A stretch of DNA of 61,617 bases, the filler included. It is 7 parts of 7 records of this genome, joined end to end, with 100 filler letters (N's around TTAATTAATTAA, not from the genome) between each part and the next. Parts side by side here need not be neighbours in the genome. Positions count along the whole stretch, not along the records: positions 21,161 to 30,140 come from SRR31156797_29335; 6 more parts are not named here. One strand, written 5' to 3'. Every line of letters begins with the position of its first letter. Position 1 is the first letter of the stretch. Made by a program: the position numbers and the translations under genes. Positions 6,539 to 53,316 of this stretch are shown piece by piece. Below the pieces are notes generated by a model. That model did no database searches and was not told the DNA's origin. It saw only the letters and a program-made list of their open reading frames with translations.

Positions 6539-6638
6539 NNNNNNNNNNNNNNNNNNNNNNNNNNNNNNNNNNNNNNNNNNNNTTAATTAATTAANNNNNN
6601 NNNNNNNNNNNNNNNNNNNNNNNNNNNNNNNNNNNNNN
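6539..6638. other. Artificial contig spacer
   Basis: N44-TTAATTAATTAA-N44, which has stops in all six frames. Confidence 0.98.
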
Positions 6639-21060: not shown

Positions 21061-21160
21061 NNNNNNNNNNNNNNNNNNNNNNNNNNNNNNNNNNNNNNNN
21101 NNNNTTAATTAATTAANNNNNNNNNNNNNNNNNNNNNNNNNNNNNNNNNNNNNNNNNNNN
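21061..21160. other. Artificial contig spacer
   Basis: N44-TTAATTAATTAA-N44. Confidence 0.98.
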
Positions 21161-21471
21161 GTATATTCTACCCTATGGTCTCACTTGGAATGCTCTCATC
21201 ATCTCTTTTCCAGGGTGTTGGAAAAGGTATGAATGCTCTTTTCGCAACCATTCTGCGTGCTTTGATATTTGTCCCTATCTTCGCAATGTTCTTTGCTTTC
21301 AGTATGGATATGGGGTTGGTCGGTATCTGGTGGGGAATTGTCATAGGTAATGCCATGGGTTCACTGTTCATCTTTGTCTGGGCAAGGGTTTATGTTGGCA
21401 GATTGCTAAGGTCAAAAGAACCTGTTGATAGTCCCCATAAATTGATCGAGCATGAGGAGCTAAGAGTATAA
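21161..21471 (+). CDS. MATE-family efflux transporter, C-terminal fragment
   Basis: FQGVGKG..AL..TILR...GLVGIWWG is a typical MATE C-terminus. Confidence 0.82.
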
Positions 21472-21627
21472 CCTGAGTATAGTTAGTCCAAGCATTTTCA
21501 TTCACTTTGAATTCAAAAGATATTTAATGCACACCGGGATATATTCCTTAATGATTTTCCTGTCCTGCATCTCTCCTTAGTATATATGTCAGGGCATGAG
21601 TACTAATATCCGCGAGTTGAGGTTTCC

Positions 21628-22821
21628 ATGGCAGATATATCCCGCAAAGCAGAAGTTCAGGACGAATCGAAGTCACAGAAGGGGACTTCTGATGAGAAGG
21701 GCATCCTCCTTTTTGAGACTACAGGTAAGGAGAAGGTTTACCGGCACAAGGATTCGATAGTTGTCAGCCTTCCCCCGAGAAGAAAGACACTCACAACTTC
21801 CTGGTTAAACGGTGGTCACAGGGACGATATCAGGACGATCTTCAACCACAGGGTGCCAAAGGGCAAGCATGCTCCAAAGGACCTGGATGGTGGAAGCATT
21901 CCTGCCTATCTTTCAATTATTGCAAAAAGACTTGGTGCTGATCCGGATACTTCTTCAGGACTGCTGACTGCTGCTAATATGGAGAATGTGGCGATAGTGA
22001 CAAGGTCTTTCCGTGGTGTGGAGGTGACTGCTGTCATGACTGCCGGTATTGAGGTGAACGGTGGCCGTGCCGGAGATCCTGCTTCATACTATCAGGAAGA
22101 TGGTTCGCATCAGTTCATCCAGGGAACCATAAACACTATATTACTCATAGGTGCAGACCTTCCTGCTTATGCAATGACAAGAGCTATCATCACCGCTACT
22201 GAAGCCAAAACTGCTGCTTTGCAACAACTGATGGCTCCCAGTCGGTATTCCAGTGGAATAGCCACAGGCTCGGGTACCGATATGATCGCTATGGTTGCAG
22301 ATGGCACAAGCTCTCTTTTGTTAACTGATGCAGGGCATCATTCAAAGCTTGGGGAACTGATAGGGGATGTCGTAATTGAATGCACCTTAAAGGCTCTTGA
22401 GAAACAATCTGATCTGACAGTACTTTCACAGAGGGATATGCTGGTGAGACTTGAACGTTTTGGAGTAGATGAGAGCAACTTCTGGAAAACAGCTTCACAT
22501 ATGAACGGTGATAACCGAAAGGCCGCTTTCTTAAAAACACTGCGTGAGATGTCAAAGAGTCCTGTGATGGTGGGCGCCACTGGTTCAATACTGCATATAG
22601 TTGATGAGATATCATGGGGGCTTGTACCGGAAACTGCAGGCAGGAGAGTGGCAGTTTCTGTGATGGAGAACTTGCCGGAAATGCTTGGTTTAAAGGTGGA
22701 TTTGCCTTTTGATGAGCTTACTGATGAAAAAGACAGCATCATCGAGAATTGGATTCGTGTAACATCATGGATTGCAAAAAACTGTAATATGGAAGGGTTT
22801 TGTGGTCTGGAAGGTCACTAA
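21628..22821 (+). CDS. cbiZ: Adenosylcobinamide amidohydrolase CbiZ (corrinoid salvage)
   Basis: TSWLNGG, GLLTAANM, TAGIEVNGGRAGDPA, GTIN, TATEAKTAALQ, ATGSGTD, GHHSKLGELIG. Confidence 0.92.
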   Translation: MADISRKAEVQDESKSQKGTSDEKGILLFETTGKEKVYRHKDSIVVSLPPRRKTLTTSWLNGGHRDDIRTIFNHRVPKGKHAPKDLDGGSIPAYLSIIAKRLGADPDTSSGLLTAANMENVAIVTRSFRGVEVTAVMTAGIEVNGGRAGDPASYYQEDGSHQFIQGTINTILLIGADLPAYAMTRAIITATEAKTAALQQLMAPSRYSSGIATGSGTDMIAMVADGTSSLLLTDAGHHSKLGELIGDVVIECTLKALEKQSDLTVLSQRDMLVRLERFGVDESNFWKTASHMNGDNRKAAFLKTLREMSKSPVMVGATGSILHIVDEISWGLVPETAGRRVAVSVMENLPEMLGLKVDLPFDELTDEKDSIIENWIRVTSWIAKNCNMEGFCGLEGH

Positions 22822-22830
22822 GGTGTAATA

Positions 22831-23811
22831 ATGAAAGAACTGATGAATCTCTCTCTTTATGAAGACGATATGAAGATGTTCAATTTTGACTGGGGGATGA
22901 TACGTAATTTTCTTGTCAGGCACGACCTCGATGGTCTGGAGCTATTTGTTGATTCTTCTCCTCTTCCGGAGCTGCCCCATGATCTTATAGAGGGTGTGCA
23001 TCTTCCATACTGGATGGGAAGGCACAGGGCATGGGCTGATCCGTCAGCATTCTCCCAGGAGATGGAAGAGTTTGAGCAGGTTTATGTTTTCGGTGGAGGG
23101 AACAAGGAGGAAGTTATAGATAATTTCAGGGCTTCCCTTGAGAATGCAGCAAAACTAGATGCTTCTTATGGTGTTTTTCATGTTTCTTATGCTGAGCTTG
23201 AGCAGGTTTTTACCCGCTGTTTTGATTGTACGGACTATGATGTGCTTGCAACGACAGCTGATTTTCTGAACGAAGCCGTTTCTGTGTATCCCAGAGGGGA
23301 GCCGCCGGTAAGATTATTTTTTGAGAATCTGTGGTGGCCAGGTCTTACTTTTCTTGAACCAATGAACGTCGAACACTTTTCAGGCATGCTTGATTTTGAT
23401 AACTGGGCATTTGTGCTTGATACCGGACACATGATGAATGCAACTATGAGATGTGATGATGAGGAATGCGCAATAGATCTCATATTGAGTTTGCTTTCAA
23501 CCCATTCAGAGGAGTTCATTGAAAGGATCGAAGGGATGCACTTCCATTGCAGCCTTTCAGGTGAGTATATGCGTCAATCCGGGGGAATGGAAGTTCCTGT
23601 GGGCTTTGATGACCTTCCTTTTCTTGAAAGGCTTATGTCTGTGATGAAGATACTTGAGCAGATGGATCATCACATGCCTTTTACCATTGCAAGATGTTCT
23701 GAGATTGTAGATTTTGTTTGTCCTGAGTTTCTTACGCATGAGTTTGTGTCGCCTGATTTGCATTCGCTTGATGAGAAATTATTGACTCAGAGACGTGCGC
23801 TTCATTTATGA
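22831..23811 (+). CDS. Xylose-isomerase-like / AP-endonuclease-2 TIM-barrel protein
   Basis: GVHLPYW, YGVFHVS, FENLWWPGL, LDTGH, GMHFH, DHH, THE metal-binding residues. Confidence 0.8.
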   Translation: MKELMNLSLYEDDMKMFNFDWGMIRNFLVRHDLDGLELFVDSSPLPELPHDLIEGVHLPYWMGRHRAWADPSAFSQEMEEFEQVYVFGGGNKEEVIDNFRASLENAAKLDASYGVFHVSYAELEQVFTRCFDCTDYDVLATTADFLNEAVSVYPRGEPPVRLFFENLWWPGLTFLEPMNVEHFSGMLDFDNWAFVLDTGHMMNATMRCDDEECAIDLILSLLSTHSEEFIERIEGMHFHCSLSGEYMRQSGGMEVPVGFDDLPFLERLMSVMKILEQMDHHMPFTIARCSEIVDFVCPEFLTHEFVSPDLHSLDEKLLTQRRALHL

Positions 23812-23942
23812 CATGGATACATGTCTTTTGTTTTTATCTTTGCTATTTTTAGTATTATACTTATATTATTTTGAAACATGGTCTATTTAATGCACCGTTT
23901 CTGTGGAAAACTATATATTCAACTCACGAATTACTTCTAATT

Positions 23943-24497
23943 ATGAGTACTACTGATAACAATGATCTTAGTGGCCCGGAACACAATGACCGCTTGAAAC
24001 TTTTCAGCGCTCTTGGAAGTGAAACAAGACTCAGGATGTTGCAAAGACTTACTGAGGGCGAGATGCACATCTCCGAACTTGCAAGGGAATTGAGTATTTC
24101 CGTTCCTGTGGCTGCAAAGCATGCTAATATCCTGGAAGATGCTGAACTTATCCTGCGTAAAGTTTATGGCAAAACCCATGTACTGCAGTTGAATAACAAG
24201 AACATTTTCAATGCCCTTGATATATTTGCACCTTCAAGAACCGTTGAAGTAGAAAAAGGTGCTACACTTCTTGAAACACTTAAAAAAGCTGCAGTGGTTG
24301 AAGTTAAGAATGTTCATGGTCAGGACAACATTGTATCCACAAACGGTGAAGAAGGTTTCTTTGTCTATGAAGTCAATGGTGTTTTCTCAGATCAGAATGT
24401 TAATGAGTTTACGTTTGACAGTGATTCAACTGTTATGTGGAAAAAACTTGAACCTATCAGCATATTGAAAGTGAAAGTAAAAATCAAGGAAGATTAA
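23943..24497 (+). CDS. ArsR-family regulator with C-terminal transcobalamin-like (DUF4430-like) domain
   Basis: FSALGSETRLRML...ISELARELSISVPVAAKHANILE wHTH; C-terminal VEVEKGATLLETLKK...IVSTNG...FVYEVNG...NEFTF...VMW. Start placed at ATG 23943 behind a TATA-like AAAACTATATAT. Confidence 0.8.
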   Translation: MSTTDNNDLSGPEHNDRLKLFSALGSETRLRMLQRLTEGEMHISELARELSISVPVAAKHANILEDAELILRKVYGKTHVLQLNNKNIFNALDIFAPSRTVEVEKGATLLETLKKAAVVEVKNVHGQDNIVSTNGEEGFFVYEVNGVFSDQNVNEFTFDSDSTVMWKKLEPISILKVKVKIKED

Positions 24498-24667
24498 GCT
24501 TTTTTTCTTCTGCACAACTGGTTTCTGACAACTGGTTGTCGATAACTTTTTTCCTATTATCCTCTCTTTTCTTTTATTTTTCCTGGCGTCTGCTTTGTAT
24601 TATTTTACATATGAATACTTTCACCCTGCTTGCCGGTTATTTATATCCGTAAATTGCGTATTATTCT

Positions 24668-25813
24668 TTGATGACGCATAGAAATCCTGTTAATGAGCAC
24701 CATATGACGCTTATGGAAAGGATGAGAGTATTATCCGAAGGCACAAAATATGACAGCTGCAACCAGAGTTCAGTCTGCCATGCTTTTGGTCCGGATGGCC
24801 GCTGCATACAACTTTATAAAACGCTTATGACCAATGCGTGTTCCGGGGAGTGCACGTATTGTCCTAACAGATGCGGCAGGGATTCTATGCGGGCGTCACT
24901 TACTCCTGAAGAGATTGCAAAGATAACTTTGTCATTTTACAGAAGGAATGCCATCGAGGGTTTGTTTTTGTCTTCTGGTGTAATGGGGGATGCTGAAAGG
25001 ACAGCTGAAAAACAACTGGAGGTTGCAAATCTTTTGCGTGGCCAGGGATTTACAGGATATATCAATATTCGCGTAATGCCCGGTACTCCGAAATATTTGC
25101 TTGAGGAAATTGCAGATTGTGCGAACAAGTTCGGTGTTAATGCTGAAACTACTAATTCACTGAACTATTCTGAGATTTGTCCCAATTTTGATTACAAAAA
25201 CGATGTTCTTCAGCGCCTGCAATGGACTCGTGATCTTATTAAGAAGAAGAGGAGTGAGGAAGGTTTCGGGGGTAGAATAATCGGTGCCAACGACACGCAA
25301 TTTGTTGTGGGTGCTTTGCAGGAGCCAGACAGGGAAATTATCGGAACCGTTGAGAAATTTATGGACCGGTATGAACTCAGGAGGCCATATTTCATGAGTT
25401 TTGATCCTGTTCCGTCCACACCTCTTGAGAATAATGAACCTTCGCCTCTGTGGAGGGAGGTGCGCCTGTACCAGACATCCTACCTGTTGAAAGATTATGG
25501 GCTGACTGCCAGGGATCTGGATAGTGTTCTTGACGAGAATGGTTTCCTTCTTGATCATGATCCGAAGATGCTGCTTGCTTCATGCAGTCCTGATATGTTC
25601 CCGGTGAACATCAACACTGCAAGCAGGGATGACCTTCTCAGGGTGCCGGGAATTGGTCCGGTAGGAGCTAACCGGATTCTCCAGTCAAGACCCATAAGCT
25701 CGGAAAAAGAGCTTGCACGTATGGGTGTTGTGCTGACCCGTGCACGTCCTTTCATTGAAATAAATGGTAAAAGGCAGACAAACCTTTTTTCATTTGCAGG
25801 GGTTGGAGCATGA
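24668..25813 (+). CDS. Putative DNA modification/repair radical SAM protein with C-terminal HhH (TIGR03916-like)
   Basis: KYDSC, CHAFGPDGRCIQLYKTLMTNACSGECTYC, IEGLFLSSG, TQFVVGA, RE.RLYQ.SYL..YG, VNINTASRDDLLRVPGIG. Confidence 0.88.
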   Translation: MMTHRNPVNEHHMTLMERMRVLSEGTKYDSCNQSSVCHAFGPDGRCIQLYKTLMTNACSGECTYCPNRCGRDSMRASLTPEEIAKITLSFYRRNAIEGLFLSSGVMGDAERTAEKQLEVANLLRGQGFTGYINIRVMPGTPKYLLEEIADCANKFGVNAETTNSLNYSEICPNFDYKNDVLQRLQWTRDLIKKKRSEEGFGGRIIGANDTQFVVGALQEPDREIIGTVEKFMDRYELRRPYFMSFDPVPSTPLENNEPSPLWREVRLYQTSYLLKDYGLTARDLDSVLDENGFLLDHDPKMLLASCSPDMFPVNINTASRDDLLRVPGIGPVGANRILQSRPISSEKELARMGVVLTRARPFIEINGKRQTNLFSFAGVGA

Positions 25814-26655
25814 TAGTAGCTTTCAAGGAAAATGTTGAAGGTGTCCTTCTTGCCTGTTCCGAGCTCATGGATAATCCTGAATGTGAACTCATGTCTGCAA
25901 AGAGCAGGGATGATCTCAGTCAGAAAATTGAGTTCACAGGAATTGATGGTGTAAAGACATTGGGTTTCAGAGCTGCTACGGATACCTTCAAACTGGTTAA
26001 CTATATTTTTGGAAAAAAGAGACAAAGGATGTTTCAGAGGGATCCGGATGTCGAAGGCTACATATCCCTGGTTCTCAGGCATCACAATTCAAAGCCAGTG
26101 GAACTTGTCAGGTTTTTACACTCATGTAATGGCAATTCCGAACTGCTTTACTCCGGGAAGACTCTTGTTGGTAAGAGATACTATAATTACATGCGTGATG
26201 TGAGTCGTTCATATAATCGTTTGTGTATGTTTGCGCGCCCCTATTTTGTTAATGGTGTGTTATCTGTAAAAGTGGAGTCTCCTCATCAAATCGGAGATAT
26301 GTTTTGTCGATGGCTTTCCAGAAAGAATCCGGATCTTCCTGTATCGGTAATTGAAGGTGAAGTTGCATGGATCGGCAATGGTAGCCATGTAGGGCTGGAG
26401 CATTACACACAGGTTGCTTCCTCGCTTGCAGGAAGCCTGGAATTTGCCGGTGCATGTGATGAGATTGATGATCTATGGGACACATATTATGATTCTCAGT
26501 TTATCCCTAAAAGAAGAAACAAAGGTCATGCAAGAAGCCTGCAGCCAAAGGCTTCTGCATCAATGAGCAAGATGGCAAAGAGGGACAGTTACAAAGTTGA
26601 AAGAGGGATTGCAAACTGCACACTGGATAGTTTTGCGTCCCATTCGGAGGTATGA
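25810..26655 (+). CDS. DUF4130-family protein (TIGR03915-like partner of the rSAM enzyme)
   Basis: ATGA overlap with the rSAM stop; R.CMFARP, H.IGD, DDLWDTYYDSQFIPKRRN. Confidence 0.72.
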   Translation: MIVAFKENVEGVLLACSELMDNPECELMSAKSRDDLSQKIEFTGIDGVKTLGFRAATDTFKLVNYIFGKKRQRMFQRDPDVEGYISLVLRHHNSKPVELVRFLHSCNGNSELLYSGKTLVGKRYYNYMRDVSRSYNRLCMFARPYFVNGVLSVKVESPHQIGDMFCRWLSRKNPDLPVSVIEGEVAWIGNGSHVGLEHYTQVASSLAGSLEFAGACDEIDDLWDTYYDSQFIPKRRNKGHARSLQPKASASMSKMAKRDSYKVERGIANCTLDSFASHSEV

Positions 26656-28766
26656 TGTTAGCTGAGGTCAGGACACTACAGGATATTCCTCGTATAGGGG
26701 ACAAGATGTCGAAGCGCTTTGTTGAACATTTCGGAACAGAGGGGCAGGCACTTGATGCTATACTTGCCGGTGATATTGCAAGTATTTCTGAGGTGGAAGG
26801 TATAGGACAACGTTATGCCATCTCTCTGATACAGGATGTAGCTTCCAGAGTGGAAGGTGTGAATGTGACCGATTTCCTGAGGACAAGGGAGTCCATGGAC
26901 GTCTATGAAAAACTTCTGGATCTTATCAAGGAGTTCGCACACACTCGTTACTCAAAGGATAAATTACATGTGTTCTTCCCATATCCTGCTACCAAATCTG
27001 AAAAGATAATGGAGATACGTAATTCTGTATCCTACTATATGGAAACGGCCGCCGTCCTTGAAGGTAATGGATCGGTTGCAGAGTTGCTTCCAAAGGTGTC
27101 ACAGCTTAATTTCAAACATCAGTATCCAAAGGTGCGGGACAGGGTAATTATCACATCCGATCAGGATGATTATGAGTATGCAAGAAATCGTTTTACAGGT
27201 CTTATTGATGTTCATTTCACCCGTTCCCTTTCAGAGTTTATCGATGTTTCCCGGGGATTCTCACAGGTAATTGCTGTAGGTGATGACTATCTGGCATTCG
27301 ATTTCCCTGAGGATGTAGAACCTGAATTCATTGCCGACCTCAACGACCTTGAGGATTTCAAGGTTGTACCGGAAAAGGAGATATTTGCATTCTCCCAAAA
27401 CCTCAGATCGCTGGAATCATCTATAAAGGTCGTCAAGTTGCTGCGCTCCAGAGGTATCTGTTTCTTTGACAGGATGGATGATGATACCCTTGAACTGCTT
27501 GCTTCTACATTGTCTCTTATCGATGAAGATGGGGATATTGTTCACGGAACTGACGAAGAGCTGGATAGGATCACCAATGCTATTGAAAGGCTTCAATCCA
27601 CGGTTTCAGAATCAGTGTCCTTTGTCAATGACGAACTGAATTCGTGTCTTGAAAAGAGTCAGATGACGTTAAGTGGCCAGGATATGTTGAAGGTCATGAA
27701 CGGGTCTATTGAACTTAAGGAGATGCTTGGTAAGACACTTCACAAAAGCTATCATTCCATAATCAAACAGGGAGTGGAGAAGATATGCAATGACCTTCAA
27801 CTGGAGAAAAAAGAAAGGCTGATGGTCGATTCTCTTTTCCCGGAAGATATCACACATCCTGCAGAAGCAGATGTCGATAATCTCACTGCTTTGAAGCAGT
27901 ATCTGAATAAAAAGGCCCAGAAAAGGAAATTCGACCATAAGCGTGAAGTTTCCCGTATACTGTCTTCTTACAGGGAGTTATCAAGGGAACTAGCACGTGA
28001 GGTGCTTGATTTCGACGTGGGTTTTGCCATTGGTTCTTTTGCACTAAAATATGGCCTTGTTATGCCTGATATAACAGACAGTACAGGAGTTGGTTTTAAA
28101 GGTGGAAGGAACCTTTTCCTGCTCTCCAGACATGGTGATGTAATTCCTATAGATTATTCTGTGGGTGAGAACAAGTTCAGTCCAAAAGACGAGATTAGCA
28201 AGGTCGTGTTGTTGAGTGGCGTTAACTCAGGAGGTAAGACATCACTCCTGGAACTTCTGGCACAGGGAATCATTCTTGCACACATGGGGTTCCCCGTTCC
28301 TGCTGAGGCTATGGAACTATCTCTCACGGAGTCGATGTACTACTTTGCCAAGTCAAAAGGCACTCTTGATGCAGGGGCATTTGAGACAACACTCACTGAG
28401 TTCTCCGTGGTTGCCGATAAATCTGAAAAATTCGTACTGGCAGACGAACTGGAATCAATAACCGAACCTGGTGCATCTGCAAAAATCATGGCAGGTATTT
28501 TGGAGGTGCTCAGTGAGAACGATAGTACAATGTCTATATTCGTATCTCACCTTTCAGAGCAGATTATGGAGAACACGGCGTGTGATATAAGGGTAGATGG
28601 AATCGAGGCAAGTGGACTGGACTCGGAACTGAACCTCATTGTCGACAGGAGTCCACGTTACAATTATGTCGCAAAGAGCACTCCAGAGTTGATCGTGGAG
28701 CGTCTCTCCAAAAAGACAAAAGGAAAAGAACAGGCTTTCTATGATAAATTAAGAAGCAAGTTTTAA
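26652..28766 (+). CDS. Archaeal MutS-family ATPase (MutS2/MutS5-like) with N-terminal HhH and no mismatch-binding domain
   Basis: IPRIGDK and VEGIGQR HhH motifs; Walker A GVNSGGKT, LAHMGFPVPA, AGAFETTL, Walker B VLADELE, VSHL. Confidence 0.88.
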   Translation: MMLAEVRTLQDIPRIGDKMSKRFVEHFGTEGQALDAILAGDIASISEVEGIGQRYAISLIQDVASRVEGVNVTDFLRTRESMDVYEKLLDLIKEFAHTRYSKDKLHVFFPYPATKSEKIMEIRNSVSYYMETAAVLEGNGSVAELLPKVSQLNFKHQYPKVRDRVIITSDQDDYEYARNRFTGLIDVHFTRSLSEFIDVSRGFSQVIAVGDDYLAFDFPEDVEPEFIADLNDLEDFKVVPEKEIFAFSQNLRSLESSIKVVKLLRSRGICFFDRMDDDTLELLASTLSLIDEDGDIVHGTDEELDRITNAIERLQSTVSESVSFVNDELNSCLEKSQMTLSGQDMLKVMNGSIELKEMLGKTLHKSYHSIIKQGVEKICNDLQLEKKERLMVDSLFPEDITHPAEADVDNLTALKQYLNKKAQKRKFDHKREVSRILSSYRELSRELAREVLDFDVGFAIGSFALKYGLVMPDITDSTGVGFKGGRNLFLLSRHGDVIPIDYSVGENKFSPKDEISKVVLLSGVNSGGKTSLLELLAQGIILAHMGFPVPAEAMELSLTESMYYFAKSKGTLDAGAFETTLTEFSVVADKSEKFVLADELESITEPGASAKIMAGILEVLSENDSTMSIFVSHLSEQIMENTACDIRVDGIEASGLDSELNLIVDRSPRYNYVAKSTPELIVERLSKKTKGKEQAFYDKLRSKF

Positions 28767-28788
28767 TAAGGGTAATAAATTGAAATAA

Positions 28789-29364
28789 TTAAAGCACACC
28801 TTTTGTGCTTTTAATTTCTTCTCCCTCCACGACTACGGCTCTTCTGAGAGCATAAGCAAATGCCTTGAAAAGAGCTTCTATCTTGTGGTGGTCATTGTCT
28901 CCATATACATGAGCGTGCATGTTCATCTTTGAATTTTGAGCCACGGCTTCAAAGAAGTGGTCAACCATCTGTGTACTGAACTCACCTACCTTCGGTGCCT
29001 TGAACTCTGCATCGATTACCAGGTAGCTGCGTCCTCCGAGGTCAAGAGCTACACTTGCAAGTGCTTCATCCATTGGTATGCGTGCTTCGCCAAATCTTGC
29101 AATACCTGCTTTATTACCGAGTGCTTCTGCAAGTGCCTGACCAAGAACAATCCCGGTATCTTCTATGAGGTGGTGATCATCAACTACAAGGTCACCTGTA
29201 GCTTTGACAGTGAGGTTGAAGTTCCCATGTTTTGTGAATGCAGTAAGCATATGATCAAAAAAACCAATTCCAGTGCTTACGTCTGCAATACCTTTTCCAT
29301 CAAGTTCCAGCTCAAGATTAATGTCTGTTTCACTGGTTTTGCGTGATATGTTAGATTTTCTCAT
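28789..29364 (-). CDS. hisB: Imidazoleglycerol-phosphate dehydratase
   Basis: [46 protein letters not shown]. Confidence 0.97.
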
Positions 29365-29398
29365 GGGTGCACCCGGGTATTATGTTCTTTTATAATTC

Positions 29399-30130
29399 TT
29401 AGCTGATAATATTTATTGCTTCTGGAAGTGTAAACTTTCCGGTGTACAGTGCACTTCCAACGACAACTGCTTTTGCACCTGTCTTTTTCAGGGATACAAG
29501 ATCATCAAGGTTTGTAACTCCGCCTGATGCTATTACAGGAATGTTCACTGATCTTACCAGTTCTTCAGTAGGTTTTGTGTTAACACCTTGAAGAAGCCCT
29601 TCATTGTCAATATTGGTAAAAAGGATACTTCCTGCTCCCAGCTCTTCGAATTTAATTCCCATTTCAACAGCTGTGAATTCGGATTGTTTCTTCCACCCTT
29701 CAATGGAAACCTTTCCCTCCTTGGAGTCAAGTGCAACGTTGATGTGCTCGCTGCCATATGCATCGGCAAGTTCCTTCACAAGTGGAGGATTGTTTATTGC
29801 GGCTGTGCTGAGTATGACCCTGTCGACGCCTAGTTCCAATAATTCTGCTGCATTCTCAAAAGAACGGATTCCGCCACCAACCTGTATTTCCATGCCAAGT
29901 GGCTTGCACTCTTTGACGATCCTCTCGATAATTGGTGCATTCTTACGTTTCCCATCTATAGCACCATCAAGATCAATGAGGTGCAGGGTCTTTGCGCCTT
30001 GTGCTACCCAGTCCTTTGCCACTGCTACGGGGTCATCCAGTGAGATCATCTCACTTCCCGGAACTCCCTGGACAAGCTGGACGCATTTGCCGTTTCTCAT
30101 GTCAACGGCAGGAATAACTTCAAAACTCAT
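29399..30130 (-). CDS. hisA: ProFAR isomerase
   Basis: IPAVDMRNGKCVQLVQG, HLIDLDGA, QVGGGIRS, IASGGV, VGSALY. Confidence 0.96.
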   Translation of the reverse strand: MSFEVIPAVDMRNGKCVQLVQGVPGSEMISLDDPVAVAKDWVAQGAKTLHLIDLDGAIDGKRKNAPIIERIVKECKPLGMEIQVGGGIRSFENAAELLELGVDRVILSTAAINNPPLVKELADAYGSEHINVALDSKEGKVSIEGWKKQSEFTAVEMGIKFEELGAGSILFTNIDNEGLLQGVNTKPTEELVRSVNIPVIASGGVTNLDDLVSLKKTGAKAVVVGSALYTGKFTLPEAINIIS

Positions 30131-30140
30131 GGTACCTCAA

Positions 30141-30240
30141 NNNNNNNNNNNNNNNNNNNNNNNNNNNNNNNNNNNNNNNNNNNNTTAATTAATTAANNNN
30201 NNNNNNNNNNNNNNNNNNNNNNNNNNNNNNNNNNNNNNNN
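30141..30240. other. Artificial contig spacer
   Basis: N44-TTAATTAATTAA-N44. Confidence 0.98.
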
Positions 30241-40013: not shown

Positions 40014-40113
40014 NNNNNNNNNNNNNNNNNNNNNNNNNNNNNNNNNNNNNNNNNNNNTTAATTAATTAANNNNNNNNNNNNNNNNNNNNNNNNNNNNNNN
40101 NNNNNNNNNNNNN
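40014..40113. other. Artificial contig spacer
   Basis: N44-TTAATTAATTAA-N44. Confidence 0.98.
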
Positions 40114-45760: not shown

Positions 45761-45860
45761 NNNNNNNNNNNNNNNNNNNNNNNNNNNNNNNNNNNNNNNN
45801 NNNNTTAATTAATTAANNNNNNNNNNNNNNNNNNNNNNNNNNNNNNNNNNNNNNNNNNNN
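45761..45860. other. Artificial contig spacer
   Basis: N44-TTAATTAATTAA-N44. Confidence 0.98.
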
Positions 45861-53216: not shown

Positions 53217-53316
53217 NNNNNNNNNNNNNNNNNNNNNNNNNNNNNNNNNNNNNNNNNNNNTTAATTAATTAANNNNNNNNNNNNNNNNNNNNNNNNNNNN
53301 NNNNNNNNNNNNNNNN
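53217..53316. other. Artificial contig spacer
   Basis: N44-TTAATTAATTAA-N44. Confidence 0.98.

Follow-up and report, generated by a model that had tools for sequence, protein, structure and literature searches.

An ArsR-type regulator with a transcobalamin-like domain behind cbiZ in a Methanolobus-like genome: a plausible archaeal corrinoid sensor

The regulator gene and its locus

The DNA analyzed here (the window), a stretch of 61,617 nucleotides composed of seven contigs strung together, carries an open reading frame (ORF; 23943–24497, + strand, ATG to TAA, stop codon included) encoding a 184-amino acid (aa) protein in which an ArsR-type winged helix-turn-helix (wHTH) domain is fused to a domain of the transcobalamin type, a short distance behind the corrinoid salvage gene cbiZ. 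How archaea tune their B12 and cobalt supply has no settled answer, and methanogens use very large amounts of corrinoid. It is plausible that this protein is a corrinoid sensor, a reading in which the molecule bound, the genes controlled and the direction of the response are inferred.

The contig of the regulator spans only positions 21161–30140 (SRR31156797_29335), so that the genes left of 21061 are not its neighbors; the six linkers between contigs (6539–6638, 21061–21160, 30141–30240, 40014–40113, 45761–45860, and 53217–53316) are each formed by two 44-N runs flanking a short all-frame stop word. The + strand of this contig presents, in order, a MatE gene of which the contig edge leaves only the end, cbiZ, a TIM-barrel gene, the regulator, and genes for radical-SAM/HhH, DUF4130 and MutS-like proteins, followed on the opposite strand by hisB and a hisA/F gene. 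The initial annotation of this DNA had placed the regulator behind a cbiZ operon lacking a cobalamin riboswitch, and both statements were borne out: the regulator starts 131 nt past the TIM-barrel gene (22831–23811), which itself follows cbiZ (21628–22821) on the same strand, and the searches for a cobalamin riboswitch gave no match, either across the whole window at gathering scores or in 21161–24700 at E values up to 10. Moreover, the cbiZ leader folded no better than its shuffles (z 0.25).

Oligo-T stretches are terminators of archaeal transcription, and a run of seven T (24500–24506, +), a likely terminator of this kind, lies immediately after the regulator stop codon; T-runs are also found behind the TIM-barrel gene, at 23826–23850. 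These T-runs on both sides, together with an A/T-rich core promoter of its own, suggest that the regulator gene is probably monocistronic and transcribed alone.

The winged-helix domain

The ArsR/SmtB wHTH domain comprises residues 12–94 (23976–24224, +), with helices 1–4, a two-strand wing and helix 5. Residues 24–70 match the Pfam families HTH_20 (33.4 bits, cut-off 27) and HTH_5/ArsR (31.9 bits, cut-off 22), the latter being matched by all 28 relatives analyzed, and the NCBIfam metalloregulator subfamily model reached 52.9 bits, slightly below its cut-off of 55. Profile matches to ArsR regulators of the PDB were obtained at 1e-9. The full-length AlphaFold model, built with the 28 relatives (mean predicted local distance difference test score, pLDDT, of 81.5), presented helices at residues 12–24, 27–36, 43–49 and 54–66, strands at 70–75 and 78–83 and a last helix at 85–94, followed by a separate beta-rich domain. 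This model matched the solved ArsR proteins SrnR, CzrA, SmtB, NolR and HlyU in Foldseek with E values from 5e-6 to 1e-4, and, since only ArsR structures were returned by this search, the C-terminal domain was folded separately.

As the initial annotation had stated for its ArsR part, the protein has no Cys metal site: the whole 184-aa translation contains no Cys at all, and helix 5 (residues 85–94 of the model) carries neither His nor an acidic cluster. Therefore, neither of the classical ArsR metal sites, the Cys pair of helix 3 and the Asp/His/His/Glu site of helix 5, is present. The metal or metalloid site thus lacking is a mark of the metal-sensing ArsR subset and not of the fold family. 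A cobalt sensor similar to other ArsR/SmtB proteins, working through His residues of the wHTH and with the C-terminal domain as an accessory, would be in line with family membership, with the cbiMNQO cobalt importers that adjoin some paralogs and with the invariance of H42, H60 and H79 among the 28 relatives, H42 and S44 being aligned with the C-x-C pair of a solved ArsR-type protein in the PDB alignment. However, these three His are placed on helix 3, the recognition helix and the wing, an arrangement that, to our knowledge, matches no known ArsR metal site. Besides the missing Cys and the bare helix 5, metal sensing would leave the added and conserved ligand-binding domain unexplained, and we consider it very improbable in comparison with the sensing of a corrinoid by that domain.

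The C-terminal domain

Residues 95–169 (24225–24449, +) form a transcobalamin-beta-type SLBB/DUF4430 domain, assigned by the Pfam matches of the relatives and by the fold model, and presumed to be the ligand sensor. In the single sequence, residues 106–167 match PF14478/DUF4430 over profile positions 1–69 of 72 with E 0.011 and 16.6 bits, below the cut-off of 23.8; among the relatives, PF14478 was matched at E ≤ 0.01 by 23 of the 28, with a best value of 1.7e-8. A profile of the C-terminal 90 residues alone (A2, 43 rows), searched against 1.84 billion representatives, produced 65 matches at E ≤ 1e-3, including some low-complexity repeat proteins that are clearly spurious. Among these matches were single-domain secreted DUF4430 proteins and proteins with 4 and 10 DUF4430 repeats (6.5e-20 and 7.5e-19, respectively), the 10-repeat protein also carrying a prenyltransferase-type alpha/alpha toroid and SLH domains, as a bacterial look-alike of whole transcobalamin.

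When modeled alone, the domain reached a pLDDT of 88.2 and a predicted template modeling score (pTM) of 0.70. The alignment of this model with solved folds by VIA-align gave Z scores of 10.5 for haptocorrin, 10.2 for bovine transcobalamin and for the human transcobalamin beta domain, 9.8 for intrinsic factor, and 9.6 for the Ruminococcus gnavus DUF4430 protein 3u7z, which was deposited as a putative metal-binding protein. Each of these five best alignments covered 77–78 of the 90 residues at 1.9–2.3 Å, with 10–17% sequence identity, whereas other beta-grasp folds (RnfH, SAMP1, MoaD, ThiS) presented a Z of 6.1 or less. Similarly, the top 19 rows listed by Foldseek for the lone domain all belonged to the transcobalamin/DUF4430 group, with modest E values (0.05–0.5) and probabilities of 0.93–1.0. 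Because relatives, profile matches and fold agree, the domain is significant despite being sub-threshold in the single sequence. It belongs to the transcobalamin beta-domain/DUF4430 (SLBB) clade, clearly apart from ThiS/MoaD, and this assignment stands on firm ground. Consequently, the fusion proposed in the initial annotation was confirmed, with HTH_20 and HTH_5 above cut-off on one side and DUF4430 recovered through relatives, profile and fold on the other; the beta-grasp pattern that it had described is real, although the single sequence does not carry it past the threshold, and the ThiS/MoaD-like fold that it had named as an alternative scored clearly lower in the fold comparison.

Aromatic residues are conserved at the hairpin insert (F139–F140 and the invariant Y142), one of which may face the ligand pocket, and K167, L169 and P171 are invariant or nearly so among the relatives. 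In transcobalamin-type SLBB domains, a conserved hydrophobic or aromatic residue of the hairpin insert stacks on the lower base of cobalamin (PMC1796856). In alignment A3, bona fide DUF4430 proteins have a Y-W pair where the ArsR-linked domains show F-F or F-Y, a replacement that would suit a ligand-sensing regulator whose SLBB ligand is not a corrinoid. The ligand would then be a tetrapyrrole of another kind (haem, F430, sirohaem or one of the precursors), a fragment of the nucleotide loop or the lower base in free form, or some other metabolite. This alternative, which we judge unlikely, was anticipated by the authors and a reviewer of that paper, who cautioned that SLBB domains fused to an HTH may have ligands of another kind and noted that archaea with these domains often produce their own B12 (PMC1796856). 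In addition, transcobalamin-like alpha and beta proteins of an energy-coupling factor (ECF) operon of Lactobacillus sakei have been argued to take up haem (10.1101/864751). On the other hand, four of the five closest solved folds, all except 3u7z, are B12 carriers, which favors a corrinoid.

The same SLBB subtype was also observed in proteins P0139, P0142, and P0123, as fusions to a NUDIX domain and to a small 4Fe-4S ferredoxin motif and in a 413-aa form with about 190 residues without assignment N-terminal to the ArsR domain.

Predicted homodimer

The two-copy prediction of the regulator scored 0.70, against 0.16 for the best of three controls; the benchmark mark for such scores was reached by 20 of 30 proteins solved as same-chain pairs and by 1 of 23 solved as single chains. 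Three dimer runs agreed in at least 92% of the contacts, with a partner pLDDT of at least 83. The predicted interface has a first part formed by ArsR helices 1 and 5 (residues 14–39 and 83–95), which resembles solved ArsR dimers and may owe its score to the predictor having learned such dimers, and a second part, holding the least-error contacts, in which residues 171–179 of one copy pair with residues 161–168 and 99–100 of the other. The C-terminal tail (residues 170–184; 24450–24494, +) is, accordingly to this model, predicted to supply an extra strand to the SLBB domain of the partner. An ArsR-type homodimer through helices 1 and 5 is predicted, and the modeled position of the paired sensor domains under helix 5 suggests that their occupancy could reach the DNA-reading heads.

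A predicted interface made largely by the C-terminal domain and its tail would also be compatible with an SLBB domain that senses no small molecule and serves as a dimerization or partner module, in which case the protein would be an ordinary ArsR regulator of adjacent genes, such as the radical-SAM/DUF4130/MutS-like cluster. Beta-grasp domains often mediate protein contacts (PMC1949818), but the domain found here is specifically of the ligand-binding transcobalamin type and not a generic ubiquitin-like fold. We give this possibility little credence relative to corrinoid sensing, also in view of the gene neighborhoods described below.

Distribution and gene neighborhoods of the relatives

A word-indexed protein search revealed 151 relatives at E ≤ 1e-3, and the sources named among the 120 listed were Methanolobus (~90% identity; its orthologs are 90–91% identical to the window protein), Methanomethylovorans, Methanococcoides, Methanohalophilus, Methanohalobium, and ANME-1/Methanophagales. 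Scanning one genome per species gave 245 encoding stretches, and the analysis went on with the 80 best. The C-terminal domain was found at E ≤ 1e-5 in 112 of 401 genomes of an even phylum sample taken around one genome carrying a relative. The family is therefore not special to the methylotrophic methanogens in which the initial annotation had set it, since it extends over this sample and to ANME-1/Methanophagales.

Gene neighborhoods were assessed in these 80 loci and in 40 further regions picked blind from the hits of the phylum sample (20 distant hits with sufficient flanking sequence, the other 20 taken from larger or complete genomes), ORFs being called, their products clustered and the clusters named by Pfam. 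After eight loci without a called focal ORF were dropped (L010, L015, L023, L041, L077, L127, L132, and L140), 113 loci were counted, the window included. A corrinoid or cobalt marker (CbiZ, CbiM/N/Q, FecCD/Peripla_BP_2, or an external DUF4430 gene) was present within 6 kb of the regulator in 48 of the 113 loci: 29 with CbiZ, 12 with CbiM/N/Q, 4 with FecCD/Peripla_BP_2, and 3 mixed. In a FastTree phylogeny of the 113 proteins, the marker label required 18 changes, with good branch support for no fewer than 12, against 36 on average for shuffled labels, which indicates that the marker link is clustered but does not correspond to a single inherited synteny. Thus, the linkage of the relatives to corrinoid genes, on which the initial annotation depended, was recovered in several separate lineages.

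The kinds of neighborhood were diverse. Besides the cbiZ and TIM-barrel arrangement of the window and of L001–L032, the regulator was found beside cbiMNQO (L045, L047, L052, L064, L080, L113, L143, and L148–L152), as is the case of 9 of the 9 members of a Methanolobus paralog clade, and, in the deep clade loci L113 and L143, it was convergent with cbiM-PDGLE-cbiO-cbiQ. In L115 it was placed between cbiMNQO and btuF-like/cbiZ genes, and in L131 and L146 it was divergent from a btuFCD-like operon. Moreover, the operon divergent from the regulator in L130 (L130:6537-12174) encodes a beta-propeller with two DUF4430 domains, a DUF4430 plus alpha/alpha-toroid protein, and a BtuF-like protein, and looks like a sense-and-capture unit, a whole-transcobalamin-like toroid protein included. 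Methanolobus-type genomes carry three diverged paralogs, one behind cbiZ and the TIM barrel, another beside cbiMNQO, and the third behind pilus genes. In five complete genomes, with 4 to 13 marker matches each and consequently at most ~7% of the DNA that close, 7 of the 12 copies lay within 8 kb of a CbiZ, CbiM or FecCD match, against ~0.7 expected; three of these five genomes are close kin, so that this amounts to roughly three independent successes among five kinds of place. What recurs next to the regulator in separate lineages is CbiZ, CbiMNQO and transcobalamin-like surface proteins, neighbors that point specifically to cobalt and corrinoids rather than to haem or nickel, which argues against a non-corrinoid ligand.

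The trio of radical-SAM/HhH, DUF4130, and MutS-domain-V/HhH genes directly downstream of the regulator (24668–28766, +) follows it in about 50 of 81 sources, with 53 radical-SAM, 51 MutS-like, and 48 DUF4130 cluster members against 28 for cbiZ. Being the most constant neighbor within the Methanosarcinaceae, it speaks for an SLBB domain that senses no small molecule, with the trio as target. This synteny, however, is one inherited arrangement in one family, lost in the Methanosarcina-type and deeper clades, whereas the corrinoid and cobalt link reappears independently; besides, the regulator is served by a promoter of its own, and a T-run terminator separates it from the radical-SAM gene. The trio probably functions in the repair or modification of DNA, with no relation to corrinoids.

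A 145-aa form, 85% identical to residues 48–184 and lacking the first wHTH helices, was also observed on many contigs (P0024–P0026, P0029). It is exemplified by a second copy in Methanolobus bombayensis (L029:6001-6411) and may be a truncated paralog or a mis-called start.

The cbiZ and TIM-barrel genes

The cbiZ gene (21628–22821, +) encodes a 397-aa adenosylcobinamide amidohydrolase whose residues 48–252 match Pfam CbiZ with E 1e-57. The domain ends near residue 252 and is followed by a C-terminal extension of ~145 aa; the NCBIfam model of the bifunctional CbiS (CbiZ plus alpha-ribazole phosphatase) covered residues 44–334 with 68 bits, far below its cut-off of 250. The following gene (22831–23811, +) encodes a 326-aa xylose-isomerase-like TIM barrel of the AP endonuclease 2 superfamily, with 30.7 bits for PF01261 against a cut-off of 31.1. 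Its cluster had 31 members among the window and the 80 loci, in the same place wherever drawn, lying between cbiZ and the regulator in Methanolobus and Methanomethylovorans. Most of the Methanococcoides and Methanohalophilus orthologs have instead a short, 241-aa TIM-barrel gene directly upstream (cluster 14, e.g., L049:5170-5892), whose best NCBIfam match was CbiR (E 5.4e-14, 52 bits, below the cut-off of 105), a cobamide-remodeling phosphodiesterase (PMC7733943).

The 326-aa protein of the window had no NCBIfam match, and no tie of it to CbiR could be established; between the two TIM barrels, BLASTP gave E 0.18 and a profile–profile comparison (hhalign) gave 14% probability and E 0.0019 over 78 columns. 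Crov588, the single PDB match of the profile of the 326-aa protein, had no passing stretch and was set aside. Both TIM barrels may be undescribed archaeal enzymes of cobamide remodeling.

In the relatives, MatE-cbiZ has a MarR gene upstream, and ahead of this gene lies a highly conserved palindromic repeat (L001:1415-1567, and in the same place in L002–L022), which is probably the MarR operator. Owing to the contig edge, this region is not in the window.

Promoters and a candidate operator

The promoter of the regulator was characterized by an invariant A/T block (23907–23919, +) in alignment A4, located ~24 nt before the ATG. By analogy with established promoter architecture, this block is a putative archaeal core promoter composed of a B-recognition element (BRE) and TATA box, with a short leader or none. 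Adjoining it upstream, a conserved element of 29 nt (23878–23906, +) formed by two tandem 12-nt units is a candidate operator of the regulator itself; this block was kept in 12 Methanolobus-type promoters, and the DNA farther upstream was T-rich and variable. A sequence-only model of the element (R1) had a single strong match in the window, the element itself (23.1 bits, E 4.5e-6), the next best reaching 7.7 bits. Genome-wide, the promoter of the ortholog was the best match in three of four related genomes (21.3, 19.9, and 15.7 bits), and in the fourth (G001) the best match, of 17.7 bits, fell inside an ORF. The element thus fits autoregulation and gives no link to cbiZ.

The alignment of 10 cbiZ upstream regions revealed a cbiZ promoter at 21514–21553 (+), with a BRE/TATA at 21514–21528 and a conserved block at 21529–21553. 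This promoter was unmatched by the R1 model. The block downstream of the TATA box sits where an archaeal repressor would, with no tie to the regulator protein. The regulator and cbiZ promoters of the window share an exact 12-mer, for which four matches were found with one mismatch allowed, against 0.38 expected, none of 100 shuffles reaching four. A palindrome-constrained expectation-maximization (EM) motif search in 69 upstream regions gave only patterns driven by start codons and TATA boxes and was discarded.

Proposed mode of action

Taken together, somewhat better than even chances can be given to a dimeric transcription factor that responds to corrinoids, probably regulates its own gene, and is tied to corrinoid salvage, corrinoid uptake, and cobalt import. 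As a one-component factor, it would pair two ArsR-type winged helices through helices 1 and 5 and bind DNA, the signal being read by the transcobalamin-beta-type SLBB domain and the usual metal sites being absent. The SLBB ligand would most likely be a corrinoid, whether a cobamide in its complete form or an incomplete corrinoid such as cobinamide. Two SLBB domains would pair by C-terminal strand exchange directly below helix 5, and ligand occupancy could in this manner shift the spacing of the two recognition helices. The regulator would probably control its own promoter by means of the tandem element abutting the BRE/TATA, and control of the corrinoid salvage and remodeling genes cbiZ and TIM barrel may be supposed from gene neighborhood. 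Paralogs and distant relatives would, in turn, control cobalt import (cbiMNQO) and corrinoid uptake (btuFCD-like genes and transcobalamin-like surface proteins). As to the sign of the response, we lean slightly, by way of a guess, to a ligand-bound form that represses, as bacterial B12 riboswitches do.

Several observations weigh against this reading. ArsR proteins usually leave DNA upon ligand binding, which fits induction better than feedback repression. In the four genomes and the window, the 29-nt element was found neither before cbiZ nor at any other promoter, and the 12-mer shared by the regulator and cbiZ promoters is not conserved in the relatives and overlaps the cbiZ TATA box. To the sub-threshold DUF4430 match and the published warning on other ligands must be added the PDB sequence-profile searches with the C-terminal domain, one of which returned no transcobalamin and three chance matches, and the other transcobalamin 5no0 at E 0.8 only, with no usable alignment. 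Furthermore, no marker was found within 6 kb in 65 of the 113 loci, several of these rows in the cbiZ clade corresponding to contigs cut short upstream. The Methanococcoides and Methanohalophilus orthologs keep the downstream radical-SAM/DUF4130/MutS synteny and lack cbiZ, with no marker nearby except in L073, and some loci lie among ribosomal or F420 genes. The loci without a marker also include two further clades, whose neighborhoods would suit a ligand other than a corrinoid. Methanosarcina-type orthologs (L133–L139, L141, and L142; genomes of ~2.9–4.2 Mb) are divergent from a DUF2162-MotA/ExbB-DUF2149 operon (e.g., L133:3587-5279), and Porphyromonas gingivalis has MotA/ExbB and DUF2149 genes next to a CobN-like gene in its hmu operon, which serves haem uptake. 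This clade also faces fibrillarin/Nop genes. In a deep clade, the regulator is immediately preceded, in the same orientation, by the gene of a DraG-like ADP-ribosylglycohydrolase at six loci or more (L116:4735-5679, L119:6584-7528, L121:4738-5658, L125:4728-5651, L128:6510-7454, and L129:4801-5727).

A more ambitious version of corrinoid sensing, which we regard as doubtful, would make of the three paralogs a small network telling apart complete cobamide, wrong or incomplete corrinoid, and cobalt shortage, each paralog being wired to its own module. The strand-swapped SLBB dimer and the winged helix would grip the ligand between them, with the invariant H42 perhaps acting as an axial ligand of cobalt.

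The regulator is an easily testable candidate answer to how archaea sense B12, being a small soluble protein. If corrinoid binding were true, it would represent a B12 sensor made of protein and independent of light, which could serve as a component of biosensors and would give access to the way in which methanogens and ANME archaea remodel corrinoids through cbiZ and the TIM-barrel enzyme. If the network of three paralogs were true, it would be the first light-independent, protein-based B12 sensing system, an archaeal counterpart of the riboswitch.

Comparison with known systems

The idea itself is not new, since a regulator of this kind was predicted in print in 2007 and the window gene is another member, which lowers the weight of the finding. 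Burroughs, Balaji, Iyer and Aravind defined the SLBB superfamily (Biol Direct 2007, 2:4; PMC1796856) and, for the ArsR-SLBB fusions of Methanosarcina, proposed a likely role as one-component factors whose signal would be B12, a B12 precursor or some other soluble ligand, a reviewer having asked that the B12 claim be softened. The architecture of two domains, the lineages (a Methanosarcina example, and Methanococcoides burtonii in the species list) and the proposed role are the same, and there is no difference in kind, the window gene being an ortholog or paralog in a Methanolobus-like genome. In a literature coverage that largely excludes subscription journals, no experimental study of the ArsR-SLBB family was found, the 2007 paper alone joined 'ArsR' and 'transcobalamin', and none of the DUF4430 papers found dealt with regulators. 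What is added here is the test of the fold against solved structures, the neighborhood counts over 113 loci, the element at the regulator's own promoter, and the predicted strand-swapped dimer.

The fold is common to the regulator domain and to the beta domains of transcobalamin, intrinsic factor and haptocorrin (5no0/5np4, 2bb6, 2pmv, and 4kkj), as well as to 3u7z. Unlike these B12 carriers, the regulator is intracellular and fused to a DNA-binding domain, and, having no alpha/alpha-toroid partner, it misses half of the binding pocket of the carriers. When isolated, the beta domain of human transcobalamin is by itself able to bind both cyanocobalamin and cobinamide (PMC5599065). The regulator seems to lack the first strand that secreted DUF4430 proteins have, and in the dimer model the place of this strand may be filled by the C-terminal tail of the partner.

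Among regulators that use cobalamin as a signal for DNA binding, CarH and LitR are MerR-type, light-sensing factors with a Rossmann-like B12-binding domain. Neither this domain nor a MerR-type HTH was present in the regulator among the 16 Pfam families listed at E up to 1, and its proposed corrinoid signal is nevertheless comparable with that of CarH, an adenosylcobalamin light sensor (PMC7689651). Bacterial cobalamin riboswitches control B12 synthesis, B12 uptake, and cobalt supply (PMC7689651), and the likeness of the regulator to these elements (Rfam RF00174) would lie in the proposed function only, the riboswitch being an RNA and the regulator a protein.

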